Source: Hyphomicrobiales bacterium (GTDB lineage Bacteria > Pseudomonadota > Alphaproteobacteria > Rhizobiales > TMED25). From it: DNA of 64,000 nucleotides. The stretch's first letter is position 1. Each line of letters begins with the position of its first letter. The notes under the pieces were generated by a model that was given only the letters and a program-made list of their open reading frames with translations, made no database searches and was not told the origin of the DNA. The position numbers and the translations under genes were made by a program. The stretch spans positions 591,305 through 655,304 of the forward strand of contig CBDBEU010000003.1 of NCBI GenBank assembly GCA_965204565.1, read 5' to 3'. Shown piece after piece: positions 1-20,595 of this stretch.

Positions 1-839
1 CTGGCAAGGGTTTCCGCCCCAATGTGCTGGACCTTGGCGGCTGGAAGTGGCTGGCGCTCGGCTACAACCTCACCTACCTCCTGGTGGCGGTAGTGATGCC
101 TATTATGTGTCTTGCGGTGGTCAGTCTGCATCCGGTGTGGACGGCGGAAATTCTGCCCGACCAGATGAGCTTCAACAATTATGAGAAGACGCTGTTCTTC
201 TGGCGGCCAGATTCGATCAAGGCCGCGACCAACGGCATCTTCAACTCATTCTTCCTTGCCTTTACCGGTGCGACCATCGCCATGATCCTGGCGCTGGTGG
301 TGAGTTACATGATCCATCGCACCAAGGGATTCGGCTCAAGGCTGCTTGATTTCCTGTGCGTTGTGCCGATCGGATTTCCCGGCATCGTGCTGGCTATGGG
401 TGTGCTCGTGACCTACATCCAAACACCGATCTACGCGACATTGTGGATCCTGCTTCTGGGCTATATCACCCGCTTCTTTCCCTATGGTCAGCGCAATATT
501 TCCTCCGTGATGCTGGCGATTTCCGAAGAGCTCGAGCAGTCCTCGCGCATGGCCGGCGCCTCGTGGTTCACCACGTTGCGGCGGATTACCATCCCGCTCC
601 TGAAACCCGGCATTTTCGCCGGCTGGGTGCTGCTGTTCATCATCTTCCTGCGTGAGCTGTCGATTTCGATCATTCTGTATACCACCGGCACCGAAACGCT
701 TTCGGTGGGCGTCTACTATCTCGCCAATTTCGAGAACGAGCCGCTGACTTCTGCGCTGTCGATGGCCCAGACACTGGTGCTATTGGTGTGCATCTATGTC
801 TTCCGCCGGTTGGCGGGCCGCGAGGCATTGACGGCATGA
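1..839 (+). CDS. ABC transporter permease, C-terminal portion (gene runs off the 5' edge of the window)
   Basis: The frame is open from the window edge (track ORF 24..839). The protein is polytopic and hydrophobic, with an EAA-type cytoplasmic loop (SSRMAGASWFTTLRRITIPLLKPG) as in iron/polyamine-type permeases. Its stop overlaps the next start (ATGA at 836-839). Confidence 0.8.
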   Translation, partial: GKGFRPNVLDLGGWKWLALGYNLTYLLVAVVMPIMCLAVVSLHPVWTAEILPDQMSFNNYEKTLFFWRPDSIKAATNGIFNSFFLAFTGATIAMILALVVSYMIHRTKGFGSRLLDFLCVVPIGFPGIVLAMGVLVTYIQTPIYATLWILLLGYITRFFPYGQRNISSVMLAISEELEQSSRMAGASWFTTLRRITIPLLKPGIFAGWVLLFIIFLRELSISIILYTTGTETLSVGVYYLANFENEPLTSALSMAQTLVLLVCIYVFRRLAGREALTA

Positions 840-1954
840 GTTCGGGCAGGGTGGCAGAGCCCTATCTGGAAGTCGAACATCTGATCAAGCTGTTCGGCGA
901 GGACCGGGCGGTGGATGATGTGTCATTTTCTATCCCCGAAGGCTCGTTCCTGACGCTGCTGGGGCCGTCCGGCTGCGGCAAGACCACAACCTTGATGAGC
1001 ATTGCGGGTTTGCATCATATCGATGGCGGCCGCATTTCAGTTGGCGGGCTGACTTATACCGCGCCGGTGGACGGCGTGTTCCTGGCGCCGGAAAAACGCG
1101 ACATCGGCATGGTGTTCCAGTCCTATGCCATTTGGCCACATATGACGGTGGCGCAAAATGTCGCCTATCCACTAGAAATCCGCAAAATCAACAGGGGTGA
1201 GATCGACGACCGGGTGGCTGAGGTTCTGGCATTGGTTGGCCTTGGCGATTTCGCCGACAAGCTCGCGACCCAGCTTTCTGGCGGCCAGCAGCAGCGCGCA
1301 TCGCTCGCGCGGGCCATTGTCGCGCATCCGCGCCTGCTCCTGTTCGACGAGCCTTTGTCCAATCTGGATCTCAAATTGCGCGAGCAGATGCGTGTCGAGC
1401 TCAAGCGCATACAAAACGAGGTCGGCATTACCTCGGTCTATGTCACCCATGACCAGGCTGAAGCATTGGTGATGAGTGACGAGATCATCGTGATGAGCAA
1501 AGGAACGATCGAGCAGCGCGGCAATCCGCTCGATATCTACACCAACCCGGTCAATCGCTATGTCTCCAATTTCATTGGCATCGCCAATCTGCTCGATTGC
1601 CGGGTGCTGGAGGCCAATGGCGTTGATGGCGTTCATCACGGAACCGTCGAGGTGGCGCAGGATGGCGAGGCCATCCAACTCAAATGCCGGCTTGGCCCGG
1701 GCGTTGAGGCAGGCGCGCCGGCGGTTTTGTCAGTGCGACCTGAAAATGTGCGCGTTGCGCGCTCCAAGGATAGCGGCGACGCGCTTCCGGGCGAGATATC
1801 CAGCGTGGTGTTTCTGGGCAATTGCGTCGATGCGCAGGTCGATTGGGGCGGCTTTGAATGGAAGGTGCTGGGCCATCCGCGCGACGGGTTGAAGGTGGGC
1901 GAGAAGGTCTATCTCAATCTTGATCCTGATCACACGCTGGCGGTGCGGCCATGA
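836..1954 (+). CDS. ABC transporter ATP-binding protein (PotA/FbpC-like with TOBE-type C-terminus)
   Basis: Walker A GPSGCGKTT, signature LSGGQQQR and Walker B LLLFDEPLS are present. ATG 836 is in the frame of track ORF 788..1954 and overlaps the permease stop. Confidence 0.9.
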   Translation: MSSGRVAEPYLEVEHLIKLFGEDRAVDDVSFSIPEGSFLTLLGPSGCGKTTTLMSIAGLHHIDGGRISVGGLTYTAPVDGVFLAPEKRDIGMVFQSYAIWPHMTVAQNVAYPLEIRKINRGEIDDRVAEVLALVGLGDFADKLATQLSGGQQQRASLARAIVAHPRLLLFDEPLSNLDLKLREQMRVELKRIQNEVGITSVYVTHDQAEALVMSDEIIVMSKGTIEQRGNPLDIYTNPVNRYVSNFIGIANLLDCRVLEANGVDGVHHGTVEVAQDGEAIQLKCRLGPGVEAGAPAVLSVRPENVRVARSKDSGDALPGEISSVVFLGNCVDAQVDWGGFEWKVLGHPRDGLKVGEKVYLNLDPDHTLAVRP

Positions 1955-3069
1955 GTGATACAAATAAGCCGATGGTCGAGATCGAGCATCTGAACAAGGT
2001 TTTCGGTCATGAGGTCGCTGTCGATGATTTCAATCTGGATGTTGCCGAGGGCGAGTTCGTCACGCTGCTGGGCCCGTCCGGCTGCGGCAAGACGACGACA
2101 CTGCGCTGCATTGCCGGGCTTGAGCGGCCTGATGGCGGCGAGATCCGCATTGGCGGCGACACAGTCACCGCGCCCGCACGCGGCATTCATCTGACGCCCG
2201 AGCAGCGCAATATCGGCATGGTGTTTCAAAGTTATGCGGTGTGGCCGCATATGACGGTGTTCGACAATGTCGCCTATGGGCTGAGGGTGCGGCGCACGCC
2301 GGCAGCCGAGCGTCAGACGCGCACCATGCGCGCGCTCGAGCTTGTCGGGCTGACCGATTTTGCTGATCGCTATGCGACCAAACTGTCGGGCGGCCAGCGC
2401 CAGCGTGTCGCCCTTGCGCGCGCCATCGTCTATGAGCCGCGCGTGATTTTGTTCGATGAGCCACTCTCCAATCTCGATGCCAAGCTGCGCGAGCAGATGC
2501 GCGATGAACTGGTGCGCCTGCAAAGGGAGGTTGGCATCACCTCGGTCTATGTCACTCATGACCAGGGCGAAGCGTTGGTGATGAGCGACCGGGTGGTGGT
2601 AATGGACAAGGCGGTGATCCAACAGATCGGCAGTCCACAGGAGATCTATGCCGAACCGGCCAACAGTTTCGTCGCCGGGTTTATCGGCGTTGCCAATCTG
2701 ATAAAGGGCACGCTCAAATCGCGCCGCGGCCAGGTCTGCGAGGTCGAGATTGCGGCCAAGGATGGTAGCGACGGCTTTGCGCTGAAGGCTCATGGCGGTG
2801 AAGGAGTTGCGGCTGGTGATGGGCTCTTTATCAACATTCGCCCTGAGGATTTCAGCCTGCATCTGGACGAGCCGAAATCGGCAAGCGGCGGCAATGTGTT
2901 GAAAGGCGCGGTGATCGATACGGTGTATCTGGGCAATTGCGCCGAGGCGCGTATCAGCGTCGGCGGCCATGAGGTCGGAATTCAGATCGATCATTATGAA
3001 AATCTGGTATCGGGTCAGCCGGTCTATCTGACATTCAAGCCGGATCACGCGCTTTGTCTGGCGAGCTGA
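1951..3069 (+). CDS. ABC transporter ATP-binding protein (second, paralogous ATPase of the same system)
   Basis: Walker A GPSGCGKTT, signature LSGGQRQR and Walker B ILFDEPLS are present. The start overlaps the upstream stop (ATGA at 1951). Confidence 0.9.
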   Translation: MSDTNKPMVEIEHLNKVFGHEVAVDDFNLDVAEGEFVTLLGPSGCGKTTTLRCIAGLERPDGGEIRIGGDTVTAPARGIHLTPEQRNIGMVFQSYAVWPHMTVFDNVAYGLRVRRTPAAERQTRTMRALELVGLTDFADRYATKLSGGQRQRVALARAIVYEPRVILFDEPLSNLDAKLREQMRDELVRLQREVGITSVYVTHDQGEALVMSDRVVVMDKAVIQQIGSPQEIYAEPANSFVAGFIGVANLIKGTLKSRRGQVCEVEIAAKDGSDGFALKAHGGEGVAAGDGLFINIRPEDFSLHLDEPKSASGGNVLKGAVIDTVYLGNCAEARISVGGHEVGIQIDHYENLVSGQPVYLTFKPDHALCLAS

Positions 3070-3285
3070 ATTCTCACGGTGATTGATACGGCCGGGTCGA
3101 CCTCGGCCATGAGCGGCGCGGCACAGTCAGGCTCTGTTGCGCCCCGATCAGTTCCATGTTGAGCAAGCGTGAGCGCACCGGCCATCTGACTCAAATCGCC
3201 TCGATGACGGCGTTCAGCATCGGTATCATGGTGCAAAAGGGACTGACCGCTTGGCGAATGGTCAACTATGAAAAGTGCCTGATAG

Positions 3286-3525
3286 ATGAACTATGAAAAC
3301 AAGGAGACGCCTATGCAGACTGCAAGGCTATTGGAAGGCGCTCGGAGCAAACTTGTTGAGGCAGTAACGCGCAACCGCCTAATCCACGTGAACCGGAATG
3401 CAAAACGTTCCAACACGCTAAATGTCATCAACGAGAGGTCTGACGATGTTTTCTCGATCTTGCGGGCTAACGTGCGACGAATGAAGTTTGCAGCCACGGC
3501 GAGCGAAGAGGATGAAGAAGACTAG
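3286..3525 (+). pseudogene. N-terminal stub (~70-79 codons) of a DUF4011-type SF1 (Upf1-like) helicase, cut off where an IS3 element begins
   Basis: SKLVEAVTRNRLIHVNRNAKRSNTLNVINERSDDVFSILRANVRRMKF resembles the conserved N-terminal DUF4011 motif (rNrLlnf...l.i.de.pd.vf..L). A good SD (aaggaga) precedes ATG 3313. Such proteins normally exceed 1000 aa, and here the frame ends at the IS3 junction. The assignment is from memory of the family, not a search. Confidence 0.45.
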
Positions 3526-4516
3526 GATGACGAAGAGAAAGAACCATTCGCTCGGGTTCAAGGCCCCCGGGTTCAAGGCCAGGGTCGCGCTTGAGGCGAT
3601 CCGCGAAGAGATGACGCCGGCGGAGTTGTCGAAGAAATACGGCGGGCATGCGACCCGGATCAGCACGTGGAAGCGGGCAGCGATCCGGAACACGGCGTCT
3701 GCGTTTGACCGGCGGGGGCCGATCCGGCCCCGGCCGGTACGGTCGAGATCGAGAAGTTGCATTCCAGGATCGGGCGGCTTGTTGTCGAGCGGGATTTTTT
3801 GGCCGATGCCCCGGTTCGGCGGCTCGGGACGCGAGGCAAAAAACGGTGAGCAAGGATCATAAGCCGGGCGTTCGGCGTCAGTGCGCATTGCTGACGCTGA
3901 CGCGGTCCAGGCTCTACGATCAGCCGAAGGGCGAGAGCGCAGAGAACCTGCGCTTCATGGCAATCATGGACAGGCAGTTCCCGGAAACGCCGTGGTACGG
4001 ATCGCGGTAAATGGCGTGGCATATGCAGCGGCGGAGCCGCATGTGCGGACGGCACCGTGTCCGCCGCCGCCGTCTGATGCGCCTCATGCGGCCGGTCCCG
4101 ATCTACCGGGAGCTCGACAGCAGCAAGAAACACCTGCATCCCGATGCGTGGGGGCTTCCTGTATCTGGTGGCAATCATGGACCGGTACAGTCGAAAGGTT
4201 CCGGCTTGGCGACTGTCGAACACGCTCGAGGCAGACTTCCGTGCGGATGCCTTGAAGGAAGCGCCGGCCGGGCACGGCAAGCCGGAAATCTTCACCACAC
4301 TCACCCGGGCGCAGATCCTGATCGAGCAGTGGTCGCGCTTCTACAACACCGAGAGGCCACACTCGTCGCCGGGCTCTCGCCCACCTGTACCTGAAACGGT
4401 ATTGCCGAGGAGGCCGACAATCCCATACGCTGCAACCCTGATCGGCCGAACCGTCGATTGGACCTTGGTCGGATTCCAACTCAAAGGCCGGGTCACCAAA
4501 AAGACCCCGCACAGGT
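3500..4516 (+). mobile_element. IS3-family element, degenerate (orfA-like start at 3527; orfB pieces in at least 3 frames)
   Basis: orfA-like MTKRKNHSLGFK...ELSKKYGGHATRISTWKR. orfB pieces are KDHKPGVRRQCALLTLTRSRLY, FLYLVAIMDRYSRKVPAWRLSNTLEADF and FYNTERPHSSPGSRPPVPE. The left boundary is approximate. The right boundary is set by where similarity to the second copy of the 3' end (56188..56310) stops. Confidence 0.8.
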
Positions 4517-4715
4517 GAAGCCGAAACACCTCCGACATGCGCATGACGGCTTCGCACGCCATCTCCGCTTTTACAGACATCGCATGGGCAATGAACTCTA
4601 TCCGCCCGCACCGGCAGCGCGGCAAGCAGCCGGCATTCACATCACCATTTGCCCTTGCCGCAATGATTGGTGAAATTCCGGGAGGCCCGTGTCATAATGC
4701 GACGGTCACCCTTGG

Positions 4716-4791
<76 letters not shown>

Positions 4792-4849
4792 GGTATTTCA
4801 AGGAGTTGGAGAAAAATGTTCGGCTGACCACCCTGGAACGCCCCGCTAA

Positions 4850-5132
4850 AGCAACCAGAAAGCAACAACCCGTCCGGTCCGCCGGCAGACGTGTAGCCGT
4901 CGACCACGAATTTGCCCATCGAGGTGAGCGCGCCGCCGGCATAGCCGAACAGGGGTTCCAGAATGGCGCCTTCGTTCGGCAGGGCGATGGCATAACCGCG
5001 CCAGTCGAACGTGCATTCGAGCGTATCGCTTTCCTGTCCGCTTTCGTCCCTGATTCCGCACGAAATGAGCCTGGAATAGAAAATGCCGTTGACCGGCGAA
5101 CCGCCTGCCAGCACCCTGATGACCGGACGCAT
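4850..5132 (-). pseudogene. Phage late control protein D (P2 gpD-like), N-terminal ~95 codons only
   Basis: MRPVIRVLAGG...IRDESGQESDTLECTFDWRG...GAILEPLFGYAGG...MGKFVVDGYTSAGGP matches the gpD N-terminal pattern. The rest of track ORF 4692..5132 is non-homologous read-through into the tRNA. Confidence 0.7.
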
Positions 5133-5135
5133 GGA

Positions 5136-5378
5136 TCAGCCCCATAGCCGGTTCGGGCCGATCGGTGTTTCCGTCTCGGCATCCGGCATGACAATTTCGG
5201 TCCCGACCGGCACGTTGTGACTCACTTCCGCCAGGCCCGGATTGAGATCGAAGATTTGCTCGACATAACCGGAGAGCCGGGCGGCGCGGTTCGGGTCGTC
5301 GGGATAGAGCTTCTGGCGAAACCTCCAGGCGATTTCCTCGATGCCCATTTCGGTGCCGGTGACCTTGACCGTCGCCAT
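5136..5378 (-). CDS. Phage tail protein X (P2 gpX-like)
   Basis: 80 aa. NPGLAEVSHNVPVGTEIVMPD...NRLW matches the gpX pattern, and the gene lies between gpD and gpU/T remnants as in P2-like tails. Confidence 0.75.
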   Translation of the reverse strand: MATVKVTGTEMGIEEIAWRFRQKLYPDDPNRAARLSGYVEQIFDLNPGLAEVSHNVPVGTEIVMPDAETETPIGPNRLWG

Positions 5379-6910
5379 CAGAACAGCCCTCCAAATGCAC
5401 CGCCCCCATAGGGGGAGACGGTGACCGGGAATTCCAACTGCTTTCCCGCGCCGCTCCGGTCGATGTGAAATTGCGTGTCGGAAACCATCTCAATGATGAC
5501 CAGACCGAAGACACGCCCCGGTGTCGCGCCCGAAAACCCGACCATCATCACAGGCGATCTGAGCTTGTTTCCGGCCCGCTCCGCTCCAGCCTCGAGTGCA
5601 TCGCCGACACGACCGGCATCGGATACGAAATCGGTGAACGCCTCGCCGATCTCGCGCACCGCTTTTTCTTCACCGATCGGTCGCGGCGTCGGCAATGCCG
5701 CACGCTCCCGGAAGGCGGCAAGGGCCGTTCCGAGTTCGCGACCGGCTGCGCTGAGCGACACGGACTGAACAGCCTGCGTCACTCGATCAAACCATTGCGG
5801 GTTCGGTTCGGTCATTCCGGACCCGTCCGATTTCGGCGCAGCGGGCTCTGGCGCAGGTGTCTCGGACGGTGCCGGTTGTTCCGGCTCATCGACAAAGCCG
5901 GCCTTTTCGGCGAGCCATTTCATCCAGCTCGGCTGCTCCGGCCAATCGATATCGAATGAGATCAGCTCGCCAAGGGCATCAAACCTTGTACTGAACCAGT
6001 CTGTCAGGTCAGACCAGGCTTCTTCCATGCCGTCAATAATGAGCTCGACGATCAAAGTGCCAAGAGTGAACCGATATGTGATTGCCGACCGGATCGCGTT
6101 CCCGAGCCACTTGCCGATGCGCCGGCCGGCCGCTTCGACCTCGCCCTTCTCGGCATCGCTGGGCTGCTCCTGCGTGAACAGGTCGGAAAAGAAATTGTCA
6201 ACGGCGTCCCTGGCCCTGGCAAGCCGGGCATCAACGCCGGAGAAGTCGAACCAGCGGTCGAACGCGGCCATCGCCGCCTCGGCGTCTATTCCGATTATCC
6301 CGGCGATCTCGTCCACCCAGCCACGAACATCCGAGACAAGGCTTTCCCACTTGCCTGAAATCCATTCGATATCGGGTGCAAAAGCATCGTAAAGGCCGTC
6401 TCCAAAACCCTTCATGAACGCTTTGAAACGCTCCCGGTATTTCCAGAGCAGGAAGACAGCCGCTGCGATCAGGACGATGGTGAGAACGACCGGCCATCCG
6501 GCAGCTGCGATCGCCGACAAGGCCGCAACGGCAGCGGTGCGCAGACCGGTAAACAGCGTCGCCAGAGCCGTTCCCCTGCTGAAGGTCGCAAGCATGTGCA
6601 ATCCCGCCAGTGCGCCCTTGATCCGCCCGGGTGCGATCGATGCCAGAAACCAGCCGGCAGAACGGGCCAGACGACCGAATATCCGGCCGGCGCCCGCAAG
6701 CATCCTGAGTGGCCCGGCCAATAGCGCCACATTGCGACCGGCGCGGCCAAAGCGCATGAACAGGCCAAGAAACCTGAACAGTCGCAGGCCGAACGCTGCC
6801 CAGAGGAAACCGGCCACGCGCGATGCAATGCCGAAGGCCAGCATTGCGGCTGCGCTCTGCACGAGCACGCTTGCCGGTTCCGGGTTGGCCTGTGCCCAGG
6901 CGGCAACAAC
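5378..6910 (-). pseudogene. Phage tail tape-measure protein, 5'-truncated and fused in frame to the last ~50 codons of a gpU-like tail protein
   Basis: The protein is Ala/Gly-rich with TM-like tape-measure features (…AAVAALSAIAAAGWPVVLTIVLIAAAVFLLW…). Its C-terminus, GRVFGLVIIEMVSDTQFHIDRSGAGKQLEFPVTV, looks like a gpU C-terminus. The frame is closed by a stop at ~6911, where unrelated sequence begins. Confidence 0.65.
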
Positions 6911-6911
6911 T

Positions 6912-7074
6912 CACACTGCTGATCGGCAAGCACTTCGGCAATATTCGGATGCCGGTTGAAAAATATCTGCCCAAACCGGTCATCGATCCGCTCACGATCC
7001 GCATGAGCGAACTTATGGAGCAGCGCGGCAAAACCAAAGGCAAAGAGCCGGGTGAAGATGGCGATGTGTTATGA
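6912..7074 (+). pseudogene. C-terminal ~53-codon remnant of the gene that originally preceded the HerA-like ATPase
   Basis: The frame reads ...TLLIGKHFGNIRMPVEKYLPKPVIDPLTIRMSELMEQRGKTKGKEPGEDGDVL and ends in an ATGA overlap with the ATPase start at 7071. Upstream it abuts the truncated tape-measure gene on the other strand. Family unknown. Confidence 0.35.
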
Positions 7075-9252
7075 CCACGACCGTCGAACGCATCGGCACG
7101 CTTTCAGTCGGCCGGGTTGATGCCGTCACCGCCGAAGAGTTGTGCATCGCGCTTTTCAATGAAACTCCACAGGCGACCGCGTTGAATACCGGCACGCCTA
7201 CCGGTTTTCCGCGCGTCAATGCCTATGTACTGATACAGAACGAGATCGGCGCGGTCGTCGCGGTAATCAAGGAAATCTGCATCGTTCGTGCTAAACCGGC
7301 TCCCGGAAAGCACGACGATGCCCTTGTGGACCTTCCATATCCTGCCCGGACTATTTTGGCCATTCCGTTCGGCACACTGCTGCTTGAGGGAAATGACGGC
7401 GACGGCCAGCCACGCTATGCACTGGAACGCGGCATTCCGGTGCTGCCTTCGGTTGGCGATCCGGTTCTCCTTCCAACGGCAATGCAACTTCGTTCCATCG
7501 TCGAAGCCAAAACCGACGACCGCTTGATCCGGATTGGCTCTGCTCCTTTTGCCGACAACGCTCATGTATGTGTACCCCCGGACAAGCTGTTTGGCCGGCA
7601 TCTTGCCGTCCTTGGCAATACCGGCAGCGGGAAGTCCTGCTCCGTTGCCGGTGTTGTCCGCTGGTCGCTTGAAGAAAGTGCGGCGGCGAAGGCCTCGCAA
7701 GCGACAACGCAGAAAGGTGAAAAAGCCCAGCCGACCAATGCCAGGTTCATCATTCTAGACCCCAACGGCGAGTATTCACAGGCCTTTGAGGATGGCGCGT
7801 TGCCGGTCAGGCGCTTTTCGGTTGGCGGTAGCGACGGCGCGATTCCACTCACAGTGCCGGGCTGGCTTTGGAATGGACAGGAGTGGCGGCTTTCACGTCC
7901 GCGCAACCCGGAGTTCAGCGCCCCGTATTGCTCGGAGCACTGCGGCGGTTGCGCAATGCAGATGCGACCGCCCTGACGAAAAAAGCACAGGCGATCAATC
8001 GCTATATCAATTATGTCCGGCGGATTGAGCAGAACTATGCGGACCTGCCTCAAAGCGTTACCGGCTTTCCGCAAAACAAAGACTTCGGGTCACTGCTAGA
8101 GAGCCTGATTGAAATGAGTAAATGCGACGAGAAAGAGCTTGCCACCTGCGGCAATGAGACAGCCGATCTCGTGACCGCGATTGCGGCAATACGCGATCCG
8201 ATCGAGCAGGTGCGTACCAAGCGCCATTGGGTCAAGGGGACCGGATACAACGATTTCCAGTCTGGATTGACCTTCAAGCTGTTCTAAAGGCACTCCGCAC
8301 GATCACCGAAGCCTTTCCAATCGCTGCAACTCACGGCGAGATCAGCGAAGATGCACCGGTGCGGTTTGATGTCGTGGCACTTCCTGACTGTATCCGTAAT
8401 GTTGCTATGGAAACGGGCGGGCGGGCGGTTAATAACGTCGAACCGCTTATCAACCGCGTCTAGGTCATGCTTGGTGATGCCGGGCTCCGTCCGGTCATCG
8501 ATACCGAAGGTGCAGCTTCGTTCAGCGAGTGGCTGGCAGGCCTGCTTGGTCCCGGTGAAGGCGCTCCCGAACCGCTTGCTATTCTTGATCTCTCACTCGT
8601 GCCATCGGATGTTGTACATATTGCCGTTGCCGTGATTTCGCGACTGATATTCGAGGCACTGCAACGCTATATCAAGGAAACAAACGAAGCCCTTCCGACT
8701 GTGCTCGTGCTGGAGGAAGCGCACAGCTTCGTGCGCAAGAATGCCGATATTGGTGCGAGCGAACAGGCCGCTGATCTATGCCGCCAGACCTTTGAGCGAA
8801 TAGCAAGGGAAGGGCGGAAATTCGGTCTTGGGCTGGTTCTGGCATCGCAACGCCCGTCCGAACTCTCGCCGACAGTCTTGGCGCAGTGTAACTCGTTCCT
8901 GCTCCACCGCATCGTCAACGATGTCGATCAGAATCTTGTCCGCCGTCTTGTTCCCGACGCTTTGGGCGGGCTTCTCGACGAGCTTCCCATGATTCCTTCG
9001 CAGCAGGAAATCCCTCTCGGCCGGGCAGCCACCATACCCGTTCCCGTTCGCATCCGCGACCTGCAAAAGCCGCAGCGCCCGCGTTCGGATGATCCGAGTT
9101 TCTGGCACACATGGCTTGGCTGCAAAGGCGCTCCGCCAAACTGGACGCAAGTGGTCAAGACATGGGAAAAACCAGACGAAGAGGTCCACCAAGCGCAGAC
9201 CACGGAAAGTATCGCAGGTGACGATATCGACCCAGAACCGAACGAGGCATAG
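7071..9252 (+). pseudogene. HerA-like (DUF87) ATPase, inactivated by two frameshifts and one in-frame stop
   Basis: An N-terminal barrel-like region is followed by Walker A VLGNTGSGKS (~7615-7645), ARFIILDPNGEY and Walker B-like VLVLEEAH (~8700), then REGRKFGLGLVLASQRPSEL and NSFLLHRIVN. The reading frame changes near 7886 and near 8260-8280, and there is an in-frame TAG at 8461-8463. Confidence 0.8.
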
Positions 9253-9797
9253 TTATCGAGAACGCGCAATTTGACTCTGCTCTTCCGACAAATCCGGCGA
9301 AACGAAAAGAGGCAGGGTGATCGGTCAACTGAGAACATCAGACTTCATTTGCGTGGTCTACCTCAAAATCGGTATTTCATCCGCGGCTTTGCTTTATCTG
9401 TATGTGTTCGTTTGTTTTTTCCGGTTGTCTTCCGAGGTCAACCAAAATGGTCCACCTCAAATTGGATTTTCCCGCAATATCACAACGCCGGTTCCGACGT
9501 TTTCACGACCGCCTTCAAATCCTCAAAGTCCTGGATTTCCGGCATTTTCGGGCCGCAATCAAAAACCCTTCACAGCCGGTTTGAAGGGTCGTTGAAGGTC
9601 GTTGCCGATTTTGCCTTCAACACCGATTTTTCCGTCAAATTCTCAAACCAGATGTCAAACTACAGCCGGCAATGGCGAACCTCGTCTAGACTGGGCGGCG
9701 CTGCGCGATATATCACGGCGCTAACGCAGCACAAATCATACAATCCCGAGGCATTCTGGCGCGGTGAGGGTACATTCAGCGCGGCGTTTTCGTTTGC
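9253..9797. other. Low-GC, T-rich spacer with recurrent short motifs and hairpins; contains a 176-codon open frame (9271..9801, TTG start) of doubtful coding status
   Basis: By eye this is ~45-48% GC against ~60% around it. All three plus-strand frames stay open for 60-176 codons, and the minus strand has no ORF of 60+ codons between ~9340 and 9775. Motifs YCTTCAA/CCTCAAA/GTCAAA recur ~8 times in 9465-9660. There is a tandem TTGAAGG(G)TCG at ~9580-9602, plus hairpins CCCTTCA-N8-TGAAGGG (9566-9587) and GTTGAAGG-N15-CCTTCAAC (9590-9620). Confidence 0.5.
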
Positions 9798-10691
9798 GTG
9801 AAGCTTGAGCCCATGCGATCAAGCAGTGGGAGTTCGGTGCACAGCAAAATGAATGAATTGCCTGAACGCACGAGGCGGGTGCAATTTCGCGACACCAGCT
9901 TCGTTGTTGAGCCGATGGATCGTGGCCAGCGCAAGTTTTGGGACCGGTTCGAAGCGGTTGCGTGGGAGCCGGAAACCCTTTCCATTCTCAAGGCCAGCCT
10001 CGACCAGCGGACCACATTCATCGATATTGGAAGTTGGATTGGCCCGACGGCATTGTTCGCCGCGGCGCATGCGCGCCGTGTGATCGCTCTGGAGCCAGAC
10101 CCCCTGGCGCTGCGTCAGCTCAGGCGCAACATTGCCCTCAATCCGGACCTTGCCTCGCGCATCCAGGTGCTGGGCCGTGCCCTTTACACAAAAACCGGGG
10201 TTGTGACGCTGGGCTCGACCAAGCGCGGAGGCGATTCAAAATCGAGCATCGTCCATGATGACATGCGCACCGCCTGGGAGGTGGAAACCATCACGCCGTC
10301 CGAGCTTGCAAGCGCCTTTGCCGAAGATGAGCGGGTGTTCATCAAGATCGACATTGAGGGGGGCGAATATGCGGTTGGACCTCAATTGCAGCCGCTTTTG
10401 CGCAGCCAGACGGTGGCGGTTCTGCTGTCGCTGCACCCCAAGCTGATTGTCGGGCAGGCGCGCGGTATTGAACGGCTAAAGCGGCTGGTGCAGGCCGCGC
10501 AGGAGACCAACGAGCTGCTTGCGGCCTTTGAAGGCTTTGCATTTCACGAGGCACGAAGCGTTTCTTCGCTGCGGCGGCCGGATATCGAGCGCCTGGTACG
10601 ATGGGGCATTTGCTACCGGCCGCTTGGCGGAACCTGGCTGTTGACACGTGGACACCCTGCAGCCCCCTGTCTTCTGCTTGGAATCGGGTGA
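9798..10691 (+). CDS. FkbM family methyltransferase
   Basis: SAM-binding-like FIDIGSWIGPTALFAA and the FkbM signature-like FIKIDIEGGEYAV are present. The start is uncertain (GTG 9798 or ATG 9849). The last codons may be derived from the adjacent IS end. Confidence 0.8.
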   Translation: MKLEPMRSSSGSSVHSKMNELPERTRRVQFRDTSFVVEPMDRGQRKFWDRFEAVAWEPETLSILKASLDQRTTFIDIGSWIGPTALFAAAHARRVIALEPDPLALRQLRRNIALNPDLASRIQVLGRALYTKTGVVTLGSTKRGGDSKSSIVHDDMRTAWEVETITPSELASAFAEDERVFIKIDIEGGEYAVGPQLQPLLRSQTVAVLLSLHPKLIVGQARGIERLKRLVQAAQETNELLAAFEGFAFHEARSVSSLRRPDIERLVRWGICYRPLGGTWLLTRGHPAAPCLLLGIG

Positions 10692-10694
10692 CGA

Positions 10695-11885
10695 GAGCGC
10701 CTTTACGGCCGCGATGCGTGTCGGCCCTTTGCCTGGGTTGTGGTTCGGGATCTGGTTTCCTGGGGCCGGGCTATGCCACGGCGCCTTTGCGCCCCCGGAA
10801 CAGGAGCCGTTTCATGTTGAATGCGATGTTGGCCATGCCGATCCTGGCCCTCGCCCGGTCGATGCCGATGGTGCGGACGAAGAGCCCCATTCGTGCCTTC
10901 ATACCGGCGAAGGGATGTTCGATCGCGGATCGGACCTTCGACCCTGCGGCATTGGCCCTCTCGTGATGCACGGGCATCGGTTTGCCGGGCAGCGTCGGTG
11001 ACGATCCATGTCCGGACGAAGCCGTGGCGCCGGTCAGCATTGATATGGGATTTGCAGCCGAACACCGGCGTGGCGATTGCGCCCATCGCCGTGCTGTCCG
11101 GGCGCGTCTTCCTGCGCCCTTGCTTGAGCGTCCAACGCGCGTCGCGATCCTTTTGCGCCGGTTTCCGGGGATTGGCCTGCCAATCAGTCGGGATGCCCCC
11201 GCCCTTGACGATCTCCTTCCCGGCATCGGTCATGCGCCGGCGCGGGGCCGCCACGATGGTGGCATCGACGATCTGCCCGCCCATGGCGAGATATCCGGGC
11301 GAGATATCCGGCGTCCTCAAGATGCGCGTCGAACCGGGCGAGGAGTTTCTTCACCGCGCCGGTCCGCACCAGGGCTTCCCGGAACCGCCGGATGGTCGTC
11401 TCGTCCGGCGCCCGCGCGCCGTCATCGAGGCTGAGGAAACGGCCAAAGCTGCGCCGGTCCATGATTTGGGACGCCGCCTGCGCATCCGACAGACCGTAGA
11501 GCACCTGGATCACCAGCACCTTGAACATGAGGACCGGGTCCATCGGCGGGCGCCCGCCCTGCCTGCCATCGGAACGATCAAGCGTCGCATCCAACTCTGG
11601 CCGGAAGAGCTAGCTCGAAGTCGATACCCCCCTGCAAGCCGCTCCAGCGGATCTCCCGCCTTCGATAACGCCGCGTAGCGCTCATCCGGATCGAACAACC
11701 CGCGCTGTGCAGCCATCGTTACCCTTCGTCGCCGATATCCCCACGGAATCACGCCAACACGCTCAAAGCCAGGGGGGTCAAGGCGTCCACGTGAGTAGGC
11801 TTTGCCGGGTGGAAAGGACGCAAGGTAGCGGGCATGAGGGCCTTGGTGCACAGGGGTTGGGCCGCCCGGGAAATTTGTCCGCCGC
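10695..11885 (-). mobile_element. IS5-family element (type 1), transposase split over at least 4 frames
   Basis: Pieces are MAAQRGLFDPDERYAALSKAGDPLERL (start ~11713), GGRPPMDPVLMFKVLVIQVLYGLSDAQ, GGQIVDATIVAAPRRR...KDRDARWT and SKVRSAIEHPFAGMKARMGLFVRTIGIDRARARIGMANIAFNMKRL. Boundaries are approximate. Confidence 0.8.
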
Positions 11886-11886
11886 T

Positions 11887-12246
11887 CTAGTGGATTGATT
11901 CCAACATTTGGAACCCTCGATTTCTGGCGGCGATGATTTGGTCGGGATCGGCGCGCAGGGTGAAGGGTTTTGCCTCGGTTTCGGTGTGCTGCTTGATGAA
12001 GCGGTTGATGGCGACCTGGAGGTCGACGACCGGGCAGAAGATGCCGTGTTTCAGGCGGCGCCCGGTCAGCTCGGCAAAGAAGCCTTCGACGGCGTTCGGC
12101 CATGACGCCGGTGTTGGGGTAAAATGGAATGTCCGGCGCGGGTGACGCTTGAGCCGGCACATGTTCCTGCCGAACACCTCTCCGGTCAGCATGTTCGGCG
12201 CGGCGAACATCGTGGTCGTGCCGTTGCGTTTGTCATCATGGGTCAT
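11887..12246 (-). pseudogene. IS630-family transposase (type 1), C-terminal 119 codons
   Basis: DDKRNGTTTMFAAPNMLTGEV...FHFTPTPASWPNAVEGFFAEL is typical of the IS630/Tc1 DDE region. It is cut at 12247 by the next IS. Confidence 0.75.
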
Positions 12247-12247
12247 G

Positions 12248-13416
12248 GTCCGGTGTTAATCCCCGCATTTTTGCGGGGTCCTTGGTCGTAGAATTTACGC
12301 GGCCATTCTCAGTTTCCGGGCAGAGGTCATCCCGCGGTTGCCCATGTTGGGGCGTTCGTTGTTGTTAGGTACCGGGTTGTAGGACCGGAGCCACTCGGTG
12401 GCAATCTGCTGCACCTCCTCGATGCTTTCGAAGATGTCGTATCCAGCCACTCATGCCTGATCGTTCGGTTGTATCGCTCGACGCAAGCGTTCTGCCGCGG
12501 CTTTCCCGGCTGGATACAGGCCGGCGCGATGCCCCCCTGTTCGGCCCGTTCGATCAACCTGCCACTGACGTATTCCAGGCCATTGTCGACCCTGATCGCC
12601 CTTGGCGCCCCGCCATTCGATGATCCGGTTCAAGGCCCGCACGACACGTTCGGCCGGCAGCGAAAAGTCCACCTCGATGCCCGGCCGATCCGCCATGAAA
12701 TCCATCGACCAGACCTCGTCTGGCGCGTCCGGCACGGCCAGTTCCCCGGGTTTCTCACGCTTCAGACGCCTGCGGGGCTTGATGCGCAGGTCTGGTTCCA
12801 GATCGCGATAGATCCGGTAAACGCGTTTGGGGTTCCAGACACGGCCCTGAACGTTGCCCAGATACAGGAAACACAGCCAGAAGCCCCAGGTTTTCCTGGC
12901 ATTGGTCAGTCCGACAAGCAGATCCGCGATCTGTTCGTTCCCTTCGTCCAGCTTCGGGCCGTATCCGTAGCACGTCTCGCCGATGGAGAACCCGCGGCAG
13001 GCCGGCGCAATACCGACGCCCTTCATCGCCACCGCTTTCAAGGCCAACTCTCGGCGCTGAGCCGGCCGTATCATTTTTTTCCGAGGGCCTCCTTGCGCAG
13101 GTCGTTCTGCATGCCGACGTCGGCGTACATGCGCTTCAGCCGCCGGTTCTCCTCGGCGATGGCCGTCATCTCGCTGATCAGGCGCGTGTCCATGCCGGCA
13201 TACCTGGCGCGCCACTTGTAGACCGTGGCGCTGCTCATGCCCTGTTCGCGGCACAACCCGGATACGGGCACGCCGTTCTCCATCTGCCGCAGAATGTCCA
13301 TGATCCGGGCCGCGTTGAAACGTGTTTTGTTTATCGGAATCTCCTCAGTCACCCTGCCGAGAAAATTCTACGACCAAGCCACCTTACTTTCGGGGGAGAT
13401 TACCATAACTCCGGAC
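12248..13416 (-). mobile_element. IS3-family element (IS407-like) with internal deletion/frameshift in orfB
   Basis: orfA is 13071..13352 (…SSATVYKWRARYAGM…RRLKRMYADV…) and orfB is in two frames (12451.., 12327..). There are ~50-bp imperfect terminal inverted repeats (GTCCGGTGTTAATCCCCGCA…TTGGTCGTAGAATTT at the left, its complement at 13360-13416). ATG is present on both flanks (12245-47 and 13417-19). Confidence 0.8.
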
Positions 13417-13925
13417 ATGGTTCTTCGCCGTCGAGCAAAGACGGATGCATGATCCATCCTTCAGCCACAGCCGGCGTCTCTCGGGTTGCTTGATGAACCT
13501 TCAGCCCTTCACGTCGCCGGATGCGCTTGACCCTGTTCAGGCCGACACACCGGCCATCCTGCCCAGGCAGCCGGTGGATGCGGCGATACCCGTAACTACC
13601 ATACCGGCAGGCAAGGCAGATGACGGCTTGTGTCGGCTTGTCCGGCGTCGGATCCGCAACCGCTTTCTTCACCCGCCCGCTCTCACGCTCCGGCTCCTTC
13701 AGCCGATGCGCCTGGTTCACCTCCATGCCGCCGTACATGCGACGCCATCAACAGCAACTCTGCTCCGACACACAAAGGCTGCGGCAAACCTCACCCACCG
13801 TCGCGCCCCGGCCAAGCCGCACCTCGGCTTCACGCAGCATTCCGATAATTCGCTCCGGGGAACAGTTCTTTCTCCGGCTCATCTTCGTCTCCCGTGACGT
13901 CCAAATGAAGCCGGATCCCCTCAAC
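13417..13925 (-). mobile_element. IS3-family fragment (5' part: orfA with internal stop, start of orfB)
   Basis: The reverse strand reads MSRRKNCSPERIIGMLREAEVRLGRGATVGEVCRSLCVSEQS (start 13882) and then ...YGYRRIHRLPGQDGRCVGLNRVKRIRRREGLKV. It is truncated by the IS at 13416. Confidence 0.7.
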
Positions 13926-14930
13926 CGACATTCCCCAATTAGAACGCCATTTCGATCATGCCGCCGCTGTTTGCGTACGGATCAATCCCCTTGGGCAGGC
14001 TGTGTCGTGGTTCGGGCATCCGGTTCGTGAACCGGGCGCGATTTATGGCTGCTGCAACGGGCTTGAACCGGAAGTCGGTCTGACCGGCACCCGTCGGGTC
14101 AGACCCGTCGAGCCGCTTCCCCCCGGGTTTGATCGTCGACACCGTCATGCAGGTACCGCTGGCCGGTACCGGGGGCGCACGGAGCCGTTGGATGGCCGCA
14201 AGGATGCGGGTGAACAGAGCGCCGCCGACAGCCGCCTCGGCCGGTTGGAACGTGATGGCTCGGGCGTGGCGGACGACCCGCGCTCCGATCCTGATGAGGC
14301 AGGTCCGCAGGCCGGTCGGCGACCGGTCGGCCGTCTCCTCCGGCAGGTCGATGCCCTGCAGGAAGACACCGGGATTGCAGGCCGATGCATGAAGTTGAAG
14401 CCGCACCTCGTTCCGTGCCATGCCCTTGCAGGAAAGACGCGTCCGATTGACCGCCTTCCTTCCTTCCTCGACATGCTGTTCGGCGGTGCCGCGTTGGTTG
14501 TAGAACCGAATGATCCGGTCCGGCTCCATCGGCGGGTTGGTGACGACAAAGCCGATCTTCGGGAACAAGTCACCCGGATGCCGTTCGACCCTGGCGACGA
14601 CCCGCCATGGTTTGTCCCGTGACGCGGCCTGATACGCGAAGTCGCCGCACATGGATCGGCGGGCGATCCGCGGGGCGCTTGAGCACAGGCGCAATCCTGC
14701 TTTCCGAAACAGCGGTCTTCCCAGGCCGGATGGCGTAGGAACAGCCTTCCGCCTCCGGCGTCTTGTAGAGCTCCGGGACGGCAAAAGCGGCATCGGCCCG
14801 GAAGAGAACCGCATCAGCTCACGATCCGCATATCGCGCCAACACCGACTTGAGCACATTTTCCCGGCCGTCGGCACTGTTGAACATTGCCGGGGCGCAAT
14901 GAACGGCGTTCGAGGCGACCAAACCGGTTA
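13926..14930 (-). mobile_element. IS1380-family element, 3' ~1 kb (copy 1), 5' part replaced by an IS427-like insertion
   Basis: The transposase C-terminus reads RFYNQRGTAEQHVEEGRKAVNRTRLSCKGMARNEVRLQLHA…IRIGARVVRHARAITFQPAEAAV. The terminal sequence CGACATTCCCC(A/G)ATTAGAACGCC is shared with the copies ending at 26224 and 29647. Confidence 0.85.
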
Positions 14931-15799
14931 GGGTCCGGCCTCATTATAGCCACGAGATGAGGGCTGCGGCGCGCGCGATAACTGCCATGACGTTTTTAAT
15001 GTTGCGCTCGAAGCGAGTTGCGATGCGCCGCCGGTCCTTGAGGCGGCAGAACATGCGTTCGATGATATTTCGCTCCCTGTAGACGGCCTGATCGTAGGGA
15101 TATCGGATCTTGCGGTTCTTTCGCGGCGGGATGACGGGCCCGGTCCCGCGCTCTTCAAGCCATTCGCGCAGTTCCCGGCTGTCACGGCCTTTGTCGCCGG
15201 CACGTTCGGCGCATGGCGGCATGGCCTCGATGCAGCGCTGTGCGACCTTGCAATCATACACGTTCCGGGCGTCGGGAGCAGGACGCAATTGACAAAAACA
15301 TGGGGCGGCCCTTGTGGTCGCGGACGGCGTGGATCCCGGTGTTGCGTCCGCCTTTGGTGCGGCCGATACCATGGGCCCAAGGCCCCCCCTTTTCCGCCGT
15401 CGGCGAAGCGATGAACCTTGATGCAGGAACTGTCGATGAACAGCCGGTCAGGCGTATCCTCAGCGCCTGCCGGAGCGCTGAAGATACCTTCCCGTATAAA
15501 ACCGCACCCGGCCCGGCGGACGAAGCGGTTGCAGAGCGCCTTCTTCGGCCCGTGTATAGCGGCTCAGCCGGCCCGTCGACCGCCACAGCGCAGCGCATGG
15601 ACGATCCCGTTCGGCACAGGACGATCGTCAACTGTTTCCGGGCGCTTCCTGCCGTGCACATCAGTCGGCAGAAGCGGCGCGATCCGGGCCTACTGAGAAT
15701 CGGAAAACCAGAAGGAATCATACATCTCGTTACCTCCTCATCGGAGGCAATGAACCATCCTCGGATCAAATCGGGAAGACGGTTATTGGGGCCGGACCC
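14931..15799 (-). mobile_element. IS5-family element of the IS427 group (type 2), transposase frameshifted
   Basis: Terminal inverted repeats are GGGTCCGGCC (14931) and GGCCGGACCC (15790-99). The C-terminal half reads DKGRDSRELREWLEERGTGPVIPPRKNRKIRYPYDQAVYRERNIIERMFCRLKDRRRIATRFE. The N-terminal half is in other frames (…KGGPWAHGIGRTKGGRNTGIHAV…). Confidence 0.8.
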
Positions 15800-15831
15800 T
15801 GATCAAACGAACACGCTTCAATGCCTCCGGC

Positions 15832-18111
15832 CTAGAGTTCGCTCTCCTGACGATCCTTGAGGGCCGCCAGAAGTTTTGGCGGTGAGATCGGCAGTGAACC
15901 CATCCGCCGGCCAACCGCGTCGGCAACCGCATTGGACACCGCTGCCATCGCCGGGCAGATGTTGACTTCGCCGACACCCTTGACACCAAAGGGGTGGTTC
16001 GGGTTTGGCACTTCGACAATTAGCGTCTTGATATAGGGAAGATCCGAGGCCACCGGAATCCGATAGTCGAGGAAACTTGGATTGGCGAGCCGGCCCTTGT
16101 CGTCATAGACATATTCTTCATTGAGCGCCCAGCCGATGCCCTGCGCCACGCCACCCTGCATCTGACCTTCGACATAGCCCTTGTGGATCGCCCGGCCCGC
16201 ATCCTGCGCCACAACAAAGCTCAGAATCTCGACATGGCCAGTGTCGGGATCAACTTCGACTTCGCACATTTCCGTGGCAAAGCCCGGTGCCTGACCGCCA
16301 GCGCTGACCGCGTTGGTTGATCCAATTGGACCTCCGGTAGCTCCCGCCTGAGCAGCAATCTGTTTCAATGACAGGGGCTCAAAATCGCCGACATTGCTAC
16401 TGGAAGGCTTTGCATGGCCGTCCTCCCAATCGACCCCTTCAACGTCAACGTCCCACATGATCGCGGCGCGTGCGCGCAACTCCTGGATCACGTTGTCGCA
16501 AGCGCCGATCACCGCAAGCCCAGTGGCATAGGTCACCCGTGAGCCACCAGTCTGGCGGGTAAACGGCACAGAAGTGGTATCGTTGACTGTCGAGCACACC
16601 TCATTGTAGTCAATGCCAAATTTCTCAGCTGCCATGATCGCCATCGATGCACGCGAGCCGCCGATATCCGGGCTGCCAGTGGCGACAGAGACGGTGCCAT
16701 CGGCGTTGACATAAACGGTCGCCCCCGACTCGCCGCCACCATTGAACCAATAGCCTGACGCAACACCGCGGCCCTGGTTTGGCCCCAGCGGCTTGTTGTA
16801 GTTGGGATGATCAAGCACAGCCTTGAGCGTGTCAGCATAGCCGTTATGTGAAAGCGGCGGGCCGGAAACCATCTGCGTGCCCTTCTTCGCCGCATTCTTG
16901 AGTCTCAGTTCGACCGGGTCCATGCTGATCTTCTTGGCAAGAATGTCGAGCGTGCTTTCAATGGCAAAGCTTGCGATCGGCGAGCCCGGGGCGCGGTATG
17001 CGGCGGCCTTCGGTCGGTTCGATACCACGTCATAGCCGATGGTTTTCTGGTTCGCGATGTCATAAGGTGCAAGACTACACAAACAGCCATTCATCACCGG
17101 TGAACCGGGGAAAGCACCAGCCTGATATTTGAACACACTCTCGGCCGCGGTCAGCGTCCCATCCTTCTTGACACCAATCTTGACCCGCATCGCTGAGCCT
17201 GATGTCGGTCCGGTTGCCTGGAACACCTCATCGCGGCCCATCGCCACACGCACCGGATGACCTGACTTCTTCGACAACACCAACGCCACCGGCTCGACAT
17301 AAACCACCGTCTTGCCACCGAAGCCGCCACCGATCTCCGAAGGATGTACCTTGAGATTGGCAAGCGGCATGCCAACCAGCTTGGCCGTCAGCGCACGCAC
17401 AATGAAATGGCCTTGACTGGAGCTCCAGATTTCACCCTGACCGTCAGGATCGTAGCGGGCAAGGCAGGCATGAGGCTCGATATAGCCCTGATGGACGGCG
17501 GCCGTACGATATTCTTGATCGACGATTTCATCGGCCTCGGCAAACCCTACCTTGATATCGCCCATCGAAAACTCAAGCCGCTTGGCAATATTCGATGGCT
17601 TGGTCGGCGCCGGATCGATATTGCGTGTGATCATGTCCTCGAACAGCAGCGGTGCATCATCTGCCATCGCCTCCTCGACGTCGATCACATGCGGCAGAAC
17701 CTCATATTCGACCTCGATGAGATCAGCCGCCTTAGCCGCTGTCGCCGCATCGGAAGCCGCCACTGCCGCCACTGCGTGACCTTCATAAAGCGCTTTTTCG
17801 CGCGCCATAATATTGCGGGTGATGTGCCAGAAGTTCTGCTGCACCCGCTCTGGGCCGATATAGACGAACTCCTGGTCGGGAAGATCGGCTCCCGTCATCA
17901 CCGCCTTAACACCCTTGAGCGCCTCAGCTTTTGAGGTGTCGATTGACTTGATGCCCGCATGCGCATGCGGGCTGCGCTTGATCTTGCCGAAAAGTCTTCC
18001 AGGCAGCGAATAATCATCACCAAACCTGGCGATCCCTGTCACTTTCGGCACTCCGTCCGGACGCACAGGATTGGTTCCAACCCATTTCGTAGGTTTAGCA
18101 AGTTCGTTCAT
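15832..18111 (-). CDS. Xanthine dehydrogenase/aldehyde oxidase-family molybdopterin-binding (large) subunit
   Basis: 759 aa from ATG 18111 (MNELAKPTKWVGTNPVRPDGVPKVTG…), full length with no disruptions. No 2Fe-2S or FAD subunit genes are adjacent. Confidence 0.85.
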   Translation of the reverse strand: MNELAKPTKWVGTNPVRPDGVPKVTGIARFGDDYSLPGRLFGKIKRSPHAHAGIKSIDTSKAEALKGVKAVMTGADLPDQEFVYIGPERVQQNFWHITRNIMAREKALYEGHAVAAVAASDAATAAKAADLIEVEYEVLPHVIDVEEAMADDAPLLFEDMITRNIDPAPTKPSNIAKRLEFSMGDIKVGFAEADEIVDQEYRTAAVHQGYIEPHACLARYDPDGQGEIWSSSQGHFIVRALTAKLVGMPLANLKVHPSEIGGGFGGKTVVYVEPVALVLSKKSGHPVRVAMGRDEVFQATGPTSGSAMRVKIGVKKDGTLTAAESVFKYQAGAFPGSPVMNGCLCSLAPYDIANQKTIGYDVVSNRPKAAAYRAPGSPIASFAIESTLDILAKKISMDPVELRLKNAAKKGTQMVSGPPLSHNGYADTLKAVLDHPNYNKPLGPNQGRGVASGYWFNGGGESGATVYVNADGTVSVATGSPDIGGSRASMAIMAAEKFGIDYNEVCSTVNDTTSVPFTRQTGGSRVTYATGLAVIGACDNVIQELRARAAIMWDVDVEGVDWEDGHAKPSSSNVGDFEPLSLKQIAAQAGATGGPIGSTNAVSAGGQAPGFATEMCEVEVDPDTGHVEILSFVVAQDAGRAIHKGYVEGQMQGGVAQGIGWALNEEYVYDDKGRLANPSFLDYRIPVASDLPYIKTLIVEVPNPNHPFGVKGVGEVNICPAMAAVSNAVADAVGRRMGSLPISPPKLLAALKDRQESEL

Positions 18112-19706: not shown

Positions 19707-19719
19707 CGGTACCTGCCTC

Positions 19720-20583: not shown

Positions 20584-20595
20584 GGGAGCGGCGAG

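Follow-up and report, generated by a model that had tools for sequence, protein, structure and literature searches.

The window analysed here is the whole stretch of 64,000 nucleotides of an alphaproteobacterial contig (CBDBEU010000003.1, positions 591,305 to 655,304; mean GC content 60%), and the subject of this work is the ground around a tRNA-Lys gene near its left end. Among the features found in the window with ARAGORN and Rfam, this gene is the only tRNA; it has the anticodon CTT and an encoded CCA end (4716–4791, + strand; Rfam RF00005, 70 bits). On its 3′ side lie remnants of a P2-like phage tail module and of a SIR2–HerA defence operon, followed by a low-GC spacer, a gene for an FkbM-family methyltransferase and a zone of truncated insertion sequences (IS); on its 5′ side lie the stub of a DUF4011-type helicase gene and a degenerate IS3-family element. 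An earlier note, made from the sequence alone, had missed the SIR2 remnant upstream of HerA; all the features that it did list (stub, IS3, tRNA, gpD, gpX, tape-measure/gpU fusion, HerA, spacer, FkbM and IS zone) were recovered at or near the places it had given them. Matches to Pfam, PHROG and PADLOC models bear out the mobile-element and defence origin it had proposed for the pieces, and its view that this cargo has since been inactivated holds as well, all pieces being broken except gpX and FkbM. Within 3.3–10.7 kb, the tRNA is likely to be the only functional feature, possibly together with FkbM; DNA left unexplained between 3.07 and 10.7 kb amounts to less than 1 kb in total.

Three contigs that are 97–99% identical to the window (L081, L082 and L085) were found via exact-protein look-ups and used for strain comparisons. 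They are metagenome contigs, some with 2–4× coverage, and contigs of low coverage may add errors. L081 is collinear with window positions 1–4868 at 98.6% identity, which takes in an ABC-transporter operon, the DUF4011 stub, the IS3 remnant, the tRNA and the 77 bp of its 3′ flank (4792–4868), and past the equivalent of position 4868 it diverges into unrelated DNA made up of a Sel1-like open reading frame (ORF), IS fragments and other gene fragments. In this part of L081 (8100–8990, beyond tRNA-Lys and its 77 bp), after the short Sel1-repeat-like ORF (8415–8675) come a 64-bp piece of IS3 in inverted orientation and a copy of IS5, and the non-IS DNA is wholly absent from the 64-kb window. L082 matches window positions 4861–20979 and L085 matches positions 4861–9190, the latter with flanks of its own: COX1 fragments on one side, and HerA_C fragments, cytochrome c and superoxide dismutase (SOD) genes on the other. 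The COX1 gene of L085 (cytochrome c oxidase subunit 1; 1592–3198) is called in three pieces of 113, 185 and 190 amino acids (aa) adjoining an intact gpD, and these pieces are either a pseudogenised paralogue or errors of a contig with 4× coverage.

One of the remnants is a HerA ATPase pseudogene (7071–9252, + strand), which runs through three frames matching PADLOC PDLC04098 at positions 1–264, 262–381 and 450–685 of 686. Directly upstream are the last 60 codons of a SIR2 gene, encoding the NADase effector (6892–7074, + strand; PADLOC PDLC04079 positions 371–419 of 430, E = 5.8 × 10−11). The stop codon of this remnant overlaps the HerA ATG, and its peptide is 77% identical to the SIR2 C terminus in L102, the closest full system found; the gene has lost about 370 N-terminal codons and with them the catalytic domain. 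HerA homologues on two further contigs (L083 and L084) lie directly downstream of a full-length SIR2_2 gene, and among 14 metagenome loci with a HerA 65–83% identical to that of the window, all 13 with readable upstream DNA have a full-length SIR2 there. Because of the 60-codon remnant and the presence of SIR2 upstream in 13 of 13 homologous loci, the HerA pseudogene can be assigned to a former SIR2–HerA system, so that for annotation the remnant marks it as something more specific than a generic HerA/DUF87 ATPase. The intact orthologue in L085 (P0123, 721 aa) scores 842 bits with the PADLOC HerA model over positions 1–684 and stays below the NCBIfam equivalog cutoffs (205 versus 850 bits), which argues for a divergent HerA subfamily.

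The SIR2–HerA anti-phage system was reportedly described by Gao et al. in 2020. The window locus resembles it in a HerA that matches PDLC04098 over the full length and in a stop/start overlap typical of an operon; it differs in that about 86% of SIR2 is deleted, catalytic domain included, and in that HerA carries two frameshifts and a nonsense codon. The locus is a decapitated SIR2–HerA operon, a remnant rather than a working member of the family. The effector of working systems is an NADase whose structures and mechanism have been published (PMC11514289, PMC11472057), and the window locus is predicted to be incapable of depleting nicotinamide adenine dinucleotide (NAD+).

The lesions in HerA were located by alignment to the intact 721-aa protein of L085. 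They comprise a −1 frameshift at 7884 that lies in a G run and is common to L082; a 12-bp in-frame insertion at 8152–8163; a +2 (AT) insertion at 8266–8267, outside any homopolymer, at a place where L082 has +1; and a two-base change, from GTA-CAG to GTC-TAG, that creates a stop at 8461–8463 in the window only. Two additional frameshifts in HerA are private to L082.

The tail genes T, U, X and D lie on the opposite strand in canonical P2-type order, as in Ochrobactrum phage POA1180, the nearest characterised phage to this P2-type (Peduoviridae-like) module, and in an intact related prophage (L104); three of the four are truncated. The gpD gene (P2 late control/tail protein D) is a stub of the first 90 of ~331 codons (4861–5132, − strand; phrog_52, residues 1–90), 98.9% identical to residues 1–92 of the intact 331-aa gpD of L085 and 41% identical to gpD of POA1180. 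Tail protein X (gpX; 5136–5378, − strand; Pfam Phage_tail_X, E = 8 × 10−10) has an uninterrupted 80-codon frame, and an 80-aa gpX gene is called in L082 and L085 too; the open frame is kept, but no role is plausible for a tail protein on its own. Next to it, a tape-measure fragment continues in frame into the C-terminal half of gpU (5378–6886, − strand). The resulting ORF of 496 aa spans 5378–6868, tape-measure homology extending to 6886, and tape-measure PHROGs match residues ~57–310 of it. By tblastn, residues 403–516 of the POA1180 tape-measure protein (TMP) align to window positions 6886–6539, and residues 70–132 of gpU from POA1180 and L082 to positions 5584–5396. The gpU C terminus is weak by Pfam (E = 0.049) and 86% identical to residues 70–132 of the intact gpU of L082. 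Of the Pfam families that had been named for the pieces at this locus, DUF4011, Phage_tail_X and Methyltransf_21 were thus matched, gpU was matched weakly, and Phage_GPD gave no match on the gpD stub, for which phrog_52 was found instead.

The window shares with POA1180 the order tape measure, gpU, gpX and gpD, at 36–56% aa identity. It differs from a P2-type prophage in having these four genes only and no sheath, tube, baseplate, head or integrase genes; its tape measure starts at about residue 403 of a protein of ~700–760 aa and so lacks the N-terminal ~400 residues, gpU lacks its N-terminal half and gpD its C-terminal 240 residues. A tblastn search with 30 POA1180 proteins against the window, L081, L082 and L085 returned T, U, X and D and no other phage structural gene. 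In the intact prophage L104 the order is sheath, tube, chaperone, TMP (698 aa), U (139 aa), X (81 aa) and D (337 aa); downstream of its gpD are a small gene with a Pfam match to Acb2/Tad1-hairpin, an anti-defence sponge, and a gene for a Dam-type methyltransferase (14476–14709 and 14857–15657).

The relatives preserve more of the block, each in its own way. L085 has an intact 331-aa gpD, the same tape-measure/gpU fusion, the same SIR2 remnant and the intact 721-aa HerA. Compared with the window, L082 has more of gpD, in two calls of 280 and 90 aa, and its gpU is intact at 137 aa; its tape-measure fragment has 534 aa, with 114 bp more in the gene. The extra DNA (L082 2744–2971, versus window 5792–5905) is a 114-bp (38-codon) tandem duplication that is absent from the window and L085.

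Three joints between formerly separate sequences, or parts of genes, can be traced in this block. At junction 3, homology to the tape measure reaches 6886 and homology to SIR2 sets in at 6892; this joint is common to the window, L082 and L085; since the scar is identical in all three, it would mark the oldest event. At junction 2, in the tape-measure/gpU fusion, the pentamer CGATC (5555–5559) flanks 437 bp that are kept in L082 and missing from the window and L085. The fusion is a single open frame because T and U overlap out of frame and the 437-bp deletion restores the frame. Junction 1 (4861–4868), placed by three-way comparison of the window with L081 and L085/L082, is an 8-bp microhomology, AGCAACAA. 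This octamer is found in both parental contexts, the L081-type tRNA flank and the inside of gpD in L082 and L085, and the window reads as L081 to the left of AGCAACAA and as L082/L085 to the right of it. The junction sits 70–77 bp past the tRNA, and gpD is cut there at codon 90.

Short microhomology is typical of illegitimate recombination, and two of the three joints (junctions 1 and 2) carry it. Junction 1 is a scar of deletion or illegitimate recombination, not an attachment (att) site, and all three joints are gene truncations at arbitrary internal points, none of which resembles an att site. The adjacency of the tail/HerA block to the tRNA would be a late event, confined to the window lineage.

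The locus is thus probably best understood as a patchwork of dead remnants, left behind as illegitimate deletions, frameshifts and IS elements acted on the IS-laden genome of an uncultured alphaproteobacterium, and not as the product of serial integrations at the tRNA. The junctions, the lesions and the differences between strains are read directly from the aligned sequences, and on them we have reconstructed an order of events and a separation of the joined segments that must be taken as conditional. An ancestor would have had the distal tail module (T-U-X-D) of a P2-like prophage with a divergent SIR2–HerA operon nearby. One deletion would then have taken the 5′ parts of both, joining tape-measure codon ~403 to SIR2 codon ~370 and destroying the NADase effector, after which HerA may have drifted without its partner, remaining intact in one strain and being broken differently in two others, the window among them. 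A 437-bp deletion at the 5-bp microhomology would have fused the tape measure to gpU, and finally, in the window lineage only, recombination at the 8-bp microhomology would have joined the tRNA-Lys flank to gpD codon 90. Separately, a DUF4011-type helicase gene upstream of the tRNA may have been cut to 79 codons adjoining the IS3 remnant, and IS elements may have piled up downstream of FkbM.

Ratios of nonsynonymous to synonymous substitution (dN/dS) are 0–0.16 for the flanking ABC and xanthine-dehydrogenase-type genes, 0.59–0.66 for HerA and 1.1–1.5 for the tape-measure fragment, all calculated from small substitution counts. This pattern would fit relaxed or absent selection on the relics.

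Several observations weigh against the patchwork of remnants or against details of its reconstruction. The comparison of gpD between L085 and L082 gives a dN/dS of 0.13, from only 10 changes. No version of the tape-measure/SIR2 region without the deletion was found, so that the first deletion is deduced from two 5′-truncated genes within 5 bp of each other. Junction 1 may have arisen by simple deletion in cis, or else distant sites may have been brought together by a rearrangement. Given that some of the metagenome contigs have 2–4× coverage, single-base differences, including the −1 at 7884 in the G run, are possibly assembly errors. Finally, no single tree accommodates all strain markers: the 437-bp deletion pairs the window with L085, and the −1 frameshift and the right flank pair it with L082. 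The conflict is put down either to recombination between strains or to a homopolymer indel that recurred or is an error. Across window positions 4861–9183, 12 single-nucleotide polymorphisms (SNPs) in the left half place the window with L085, and most SNPs in the right half place it with L082. Such conflicts among SNPs and indels hint that co-occurring strains have recombined.

Every component falls into a known family. The interest of the locus lies in the resolution with which its decay can be followed: the effector would have been lost first, the orphan ATPase has drifted with different lesions in sister strains, and microhomologies have mediated deletions.

In the patchwork reading the SIR2–HerA operon was a neighbour of the prophage. 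It may instead have been accessory cargo of the P2-like prophage, carried for instance in a variable locus upstream of the sheath operon, in which case 4.9–9.3 kb would be one decayed prophage. In its favour, the two remnants are divergent and only 5 bp apart, and in POA1180 a methyltransferase moron sits between the genes for tail-fibre assembly and those for the sheath. Against it, P2-type tail genes are lacking within 10 kb in all 14 loci with a 65–83% identical HerA; in L104 the fibre and sheath genes are separated by only 235 bp, and its 21-kb locus contains no SIR2–HerA; and tblastn of HerA against 50,697 phage records gave terminase-type matches only. SIR2–HerA as a typical cargo of this P2-like phage type was accordingly set aside, being unsupported by the 14 loci, L104 and the phage records. 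Searches of viral contigs with HerA and gpD gave nothing of use. There are published cases of defective P2 and P4 elements in which defence genes survive (PMC13586616), and the window resembles these cryptic islands in that a degraded phage element, with its mobility and structural functions lost, adjoins a defence system. The published elements carry defence genes nearly identical to functional ones (PMC13586616); in the window the defence system itself is dead, and its membership of the prophage is possible. We regard prophage cargo as unlikely, and two neighbouring elements fused by a deletion as the likelier possibility.

The earlier note had interpreted the locus as a repeatedly used integration hotspot with cargo that was later inactivated. 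On this model, integrases would have targeted tRNA-Lys more than once and brought in the prophage, the defence system and the methyltransferase one after another; these cargos would then have eroded, and the att sites and integrases would have been lost by deletion. Integration at tRNA genes is common, and the DNA 3′ of this tRNA differs between strains that are 98.6% identical up to that point, L081 matching only to 4868, as had been anticipated for an alignment with close relatives; no empty site in a complete genome came with it. In both strains the variable DNA is full of IS and gene fragments, and gpD lies near one end of P2-type prophages, to judge from the gene order of POA1180. These features liken the window, with its variable, mobile-element-rich DNA 3′ of a tRNA gene, to tRNA-linked genomic islands. 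It differs from such islands in that neither an att repeat nor, among the annotated genes of L081, L082 and L085, an integrase was found, and in that its boundary is a microhomology deletion scar.

The direct repeat of the tRNA 3′ end that had been proposed to mark an att boundary is missing: when as many as 3 mismatches are allowed, the final 25 nt of the tRNA have no second copy in the window, L081, L082 or L085, and with as many as 2 allowed, the final 15 nt have none in the window. Phage_integrase is likewise absent from the precomputed Pfam annotation of the genes on L081, L082 and L085, which correspond to window positions 1–4868 and 4861–20979, no dedicated six-frame scan of the window having been made. 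The boundary itself is the microhomology scar, inside gpD and 70–77 bp past the tRNA. The 17-kb contig of L085 holds the tail/SIR2 remnant/HerA block, with HerA intact, between different flanks, and no tRNA 3′ end was found on it; an exact 35-mer of the tRNA flank was not found in the Joint Genome Institute (JGI) metagenomes either. The joint between tape measure and SIR2 truncates both genes and is not an element boundary. Moreover, the DUF4011 stub lies with the IS3 remnant on the 5′ side of the tRNA, and tRNA-targeted integration does not place cargo there. With no att repeat, no integrase match and a microhomology scar as boundary, the hotspot is not upheld, and we consider it quite improbable. 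There is no positive evidence for an ancient integration at tRNA-Lys, which in so plastic a region is possible. For the calling of genomic islands the locus is a caution, since debris beside a tRNA can mimic a hotspot when one strain-specific deletion has made the two adjacent.

A third alternative would have the pseudogenes be assembly artefacts: sequencing errors would account for the frameshifts, and the organism itself would have an intact HerA, perhaps along with other intact genes. The source appears to be an unannotated contig of a metagenome-assembled genome, the related contigs are labelled with 2–4× coverage, and the −1 at 7884 falls in a G run. Errors of base calling do not account for the large lesions, namely a gpD ending at 90 codons, the 437-bp deletion and the truncation of SIR2, and SIR2 is missing in three independent assemblies. 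HerA in the window also has the two-base substitution to TAG, the +2 AT outside a homopolymer and the 12-bp insertion, and long neighbouring genes (770 and 885 aa) are intact in the same assembly; that artefacts made the pseudogenes is very unlikely. It is likewise very improbable that the 5-kb block (D-X-U/T, SIR2 tail and HerA) or the orphan HerA alone has been kept for a new function, as HerA with another effector might be, or a domesticated tail-derived module, a reading that draws on the 97–98% identity of the block in at least three genomes with different flanks and on the full 721 aa of HerA in one of them despite the loss of its SIR2 partner.

Upstream of the tRNA, an intact ABC-transporter operon ends at 3069. 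It contains tandem paralogous ABC ATPase genes (788–1954 and 1951–3069) with ~72–79% DNA identity in blocks, the second of which is mirrored by a 372-codon antisense ORF (1930–3048), most likely an artefact of high GC content. Among the matches listed in a search of genome contigs with the flanking ABC ATPase, there were only distant relatives (up to 73% identity), lacking synteny with tRNA-Lys. Beyond the operon lies the N-terminal stub of a large helicase of the DUF4011/PDC-S37/Hhe type (3286–3525, + strand; 79 codons), also present in L081. It is recognised by Pfam DUF4011 (22.7 bits, cutoff 22.2), by PADLOC PDC-S37 (E = 1 × 10−11, model positions 6–68 of 1550) and weakly by NCBIfam Hhe (E = 0.002), and its relatives in the databases are short fragments only, two of which (P0129 and P0130, 53–63% identity) carry PF13195. 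The stub aligns to the extreme N terminus of Hhe and PDC-S37, DUF4011 helicases of 1500–1900 aa, and differs from them in keeping less than 5% of the protein, with no helicase or nuclease domain; no helicase domain follows it, and the remaining 1500 or more codons are missing.

As described earlier, the stub ends where the IS3 element starts: its first ~75 residues match, homology reaches nucleotide ~3517, the ORF stops at 3525, and an orfA-like peptide (MTKRKNHS...STWKR), recognised by eye, runs from 3527 onwards. With IS3-type orfA beginning at 3527 and DUF4011 homology extending to ~3517, there is therefore no room for a left terminal repeat. The IS3-family remnant is degenerate and ~1 kb long (3520–4520, + strand), with broken orfA and orfB and an rve/rve_3 fragment at 4144–4518. 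Other partial copies of it occur at window positions 56190–56303 and in L081.

Downstream of HerA, the low-GC spacer (9253–9797; 545 bp, GC 0.50 versus 0.60 for the window) contains a 176-codon ORF that has no Pfam or PADLOC match and no detectable homology. The adjoining gene (9798–10691, + strand), its frame apparently intact, is assigned by sequence to the FkbM family of S-adenosylmethionine (SAM)-dependent methyltransferases (TIGR01444, 80.9 bits, cutoff 37.7, model positions 1–143 of 143; Pfam Methyltransf_21). L082 has this gene; L085 and the 14 SIR2–HerA loci do not, and the spacer is absent from L085 save for an 85-bp piece. Neither spacer nor FkbM gave a tblastx or blastn match in the 14 SIR2–HerA loci of relatives, and with both absent from L085 (except for that piece of the spacer) they were rejected as components of SIR2–HerA. 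PADLOC matches of FkbM to mad2 (24 bits, SAM-binding motif only) and of HerA to mad8 were judged to be generic matches to SAM-binding and ATPase motifs. FkbM-family enzymes are not known to act as DNA methyltransferases, and there is no reason to count FkbM as defence cargo.

From 10649 to 15831 follows a stack of truncated IS elements, IS5 (DUF772), IS3 (HTH_21), IS1380 (DDE_Tnp_1_4) and DDE_Tnp_1, recognised by Pfam on ORFs of the window and of L082, by plasmid matches and by a repeat map; none of the fragments scanned in this zone matches a full-length transposase profile. A megablast search of window positions 1–20000 against plasmids matched IS fragments only, and the plasmid matches of the window IS fragments are annotated as IS3 and IS1380 transposases. 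Degraded partial IS copies, 90–97% identical to one another, are scattered over 14–64 kb of the window, and erosion is therefore a property of the genome and not specific to the tRNA locus. This suggests a genome-wide expansion of IS with pseudogenisation, as in recently host-restricted or otherwise decaying genomes. Examples of such partial copies are 22093–22649/48261–48830, 25838–26230, 29647–31150 and 53913–54278, further ones being 55452–55597/63826–63971, 56190–56303 and 61080–61495, and the stretches at ~22–25 kb and 50–54.5 kb are poor in ORFs.

In L082, an IS5 fragment just past the 3′ end of gpD (52–480, versus window 11157–11567) is inverted relative to the IS5 after FkbM, so that the block from gpD to FkbM is bracketed there by inverted IS5 remnants; the contig ends at this point. 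Inverted IS1380-type copies in the window (14232–14933 and 18985–19709; 93–97% complementary) bracket a 770-aa xanthine-dehydrogenase-type gene (15832–18144). The right-hand IS1380 (~18473–19827) is absent from the otherwise 99.5% identical L082, which has no copy corresponding to window positions 18473–19827, and it is therefore a recent insertion or a strain polymorphism. The IS1380 pair around 15832–18144 resembles a composite transposon or a substrate for inversion.

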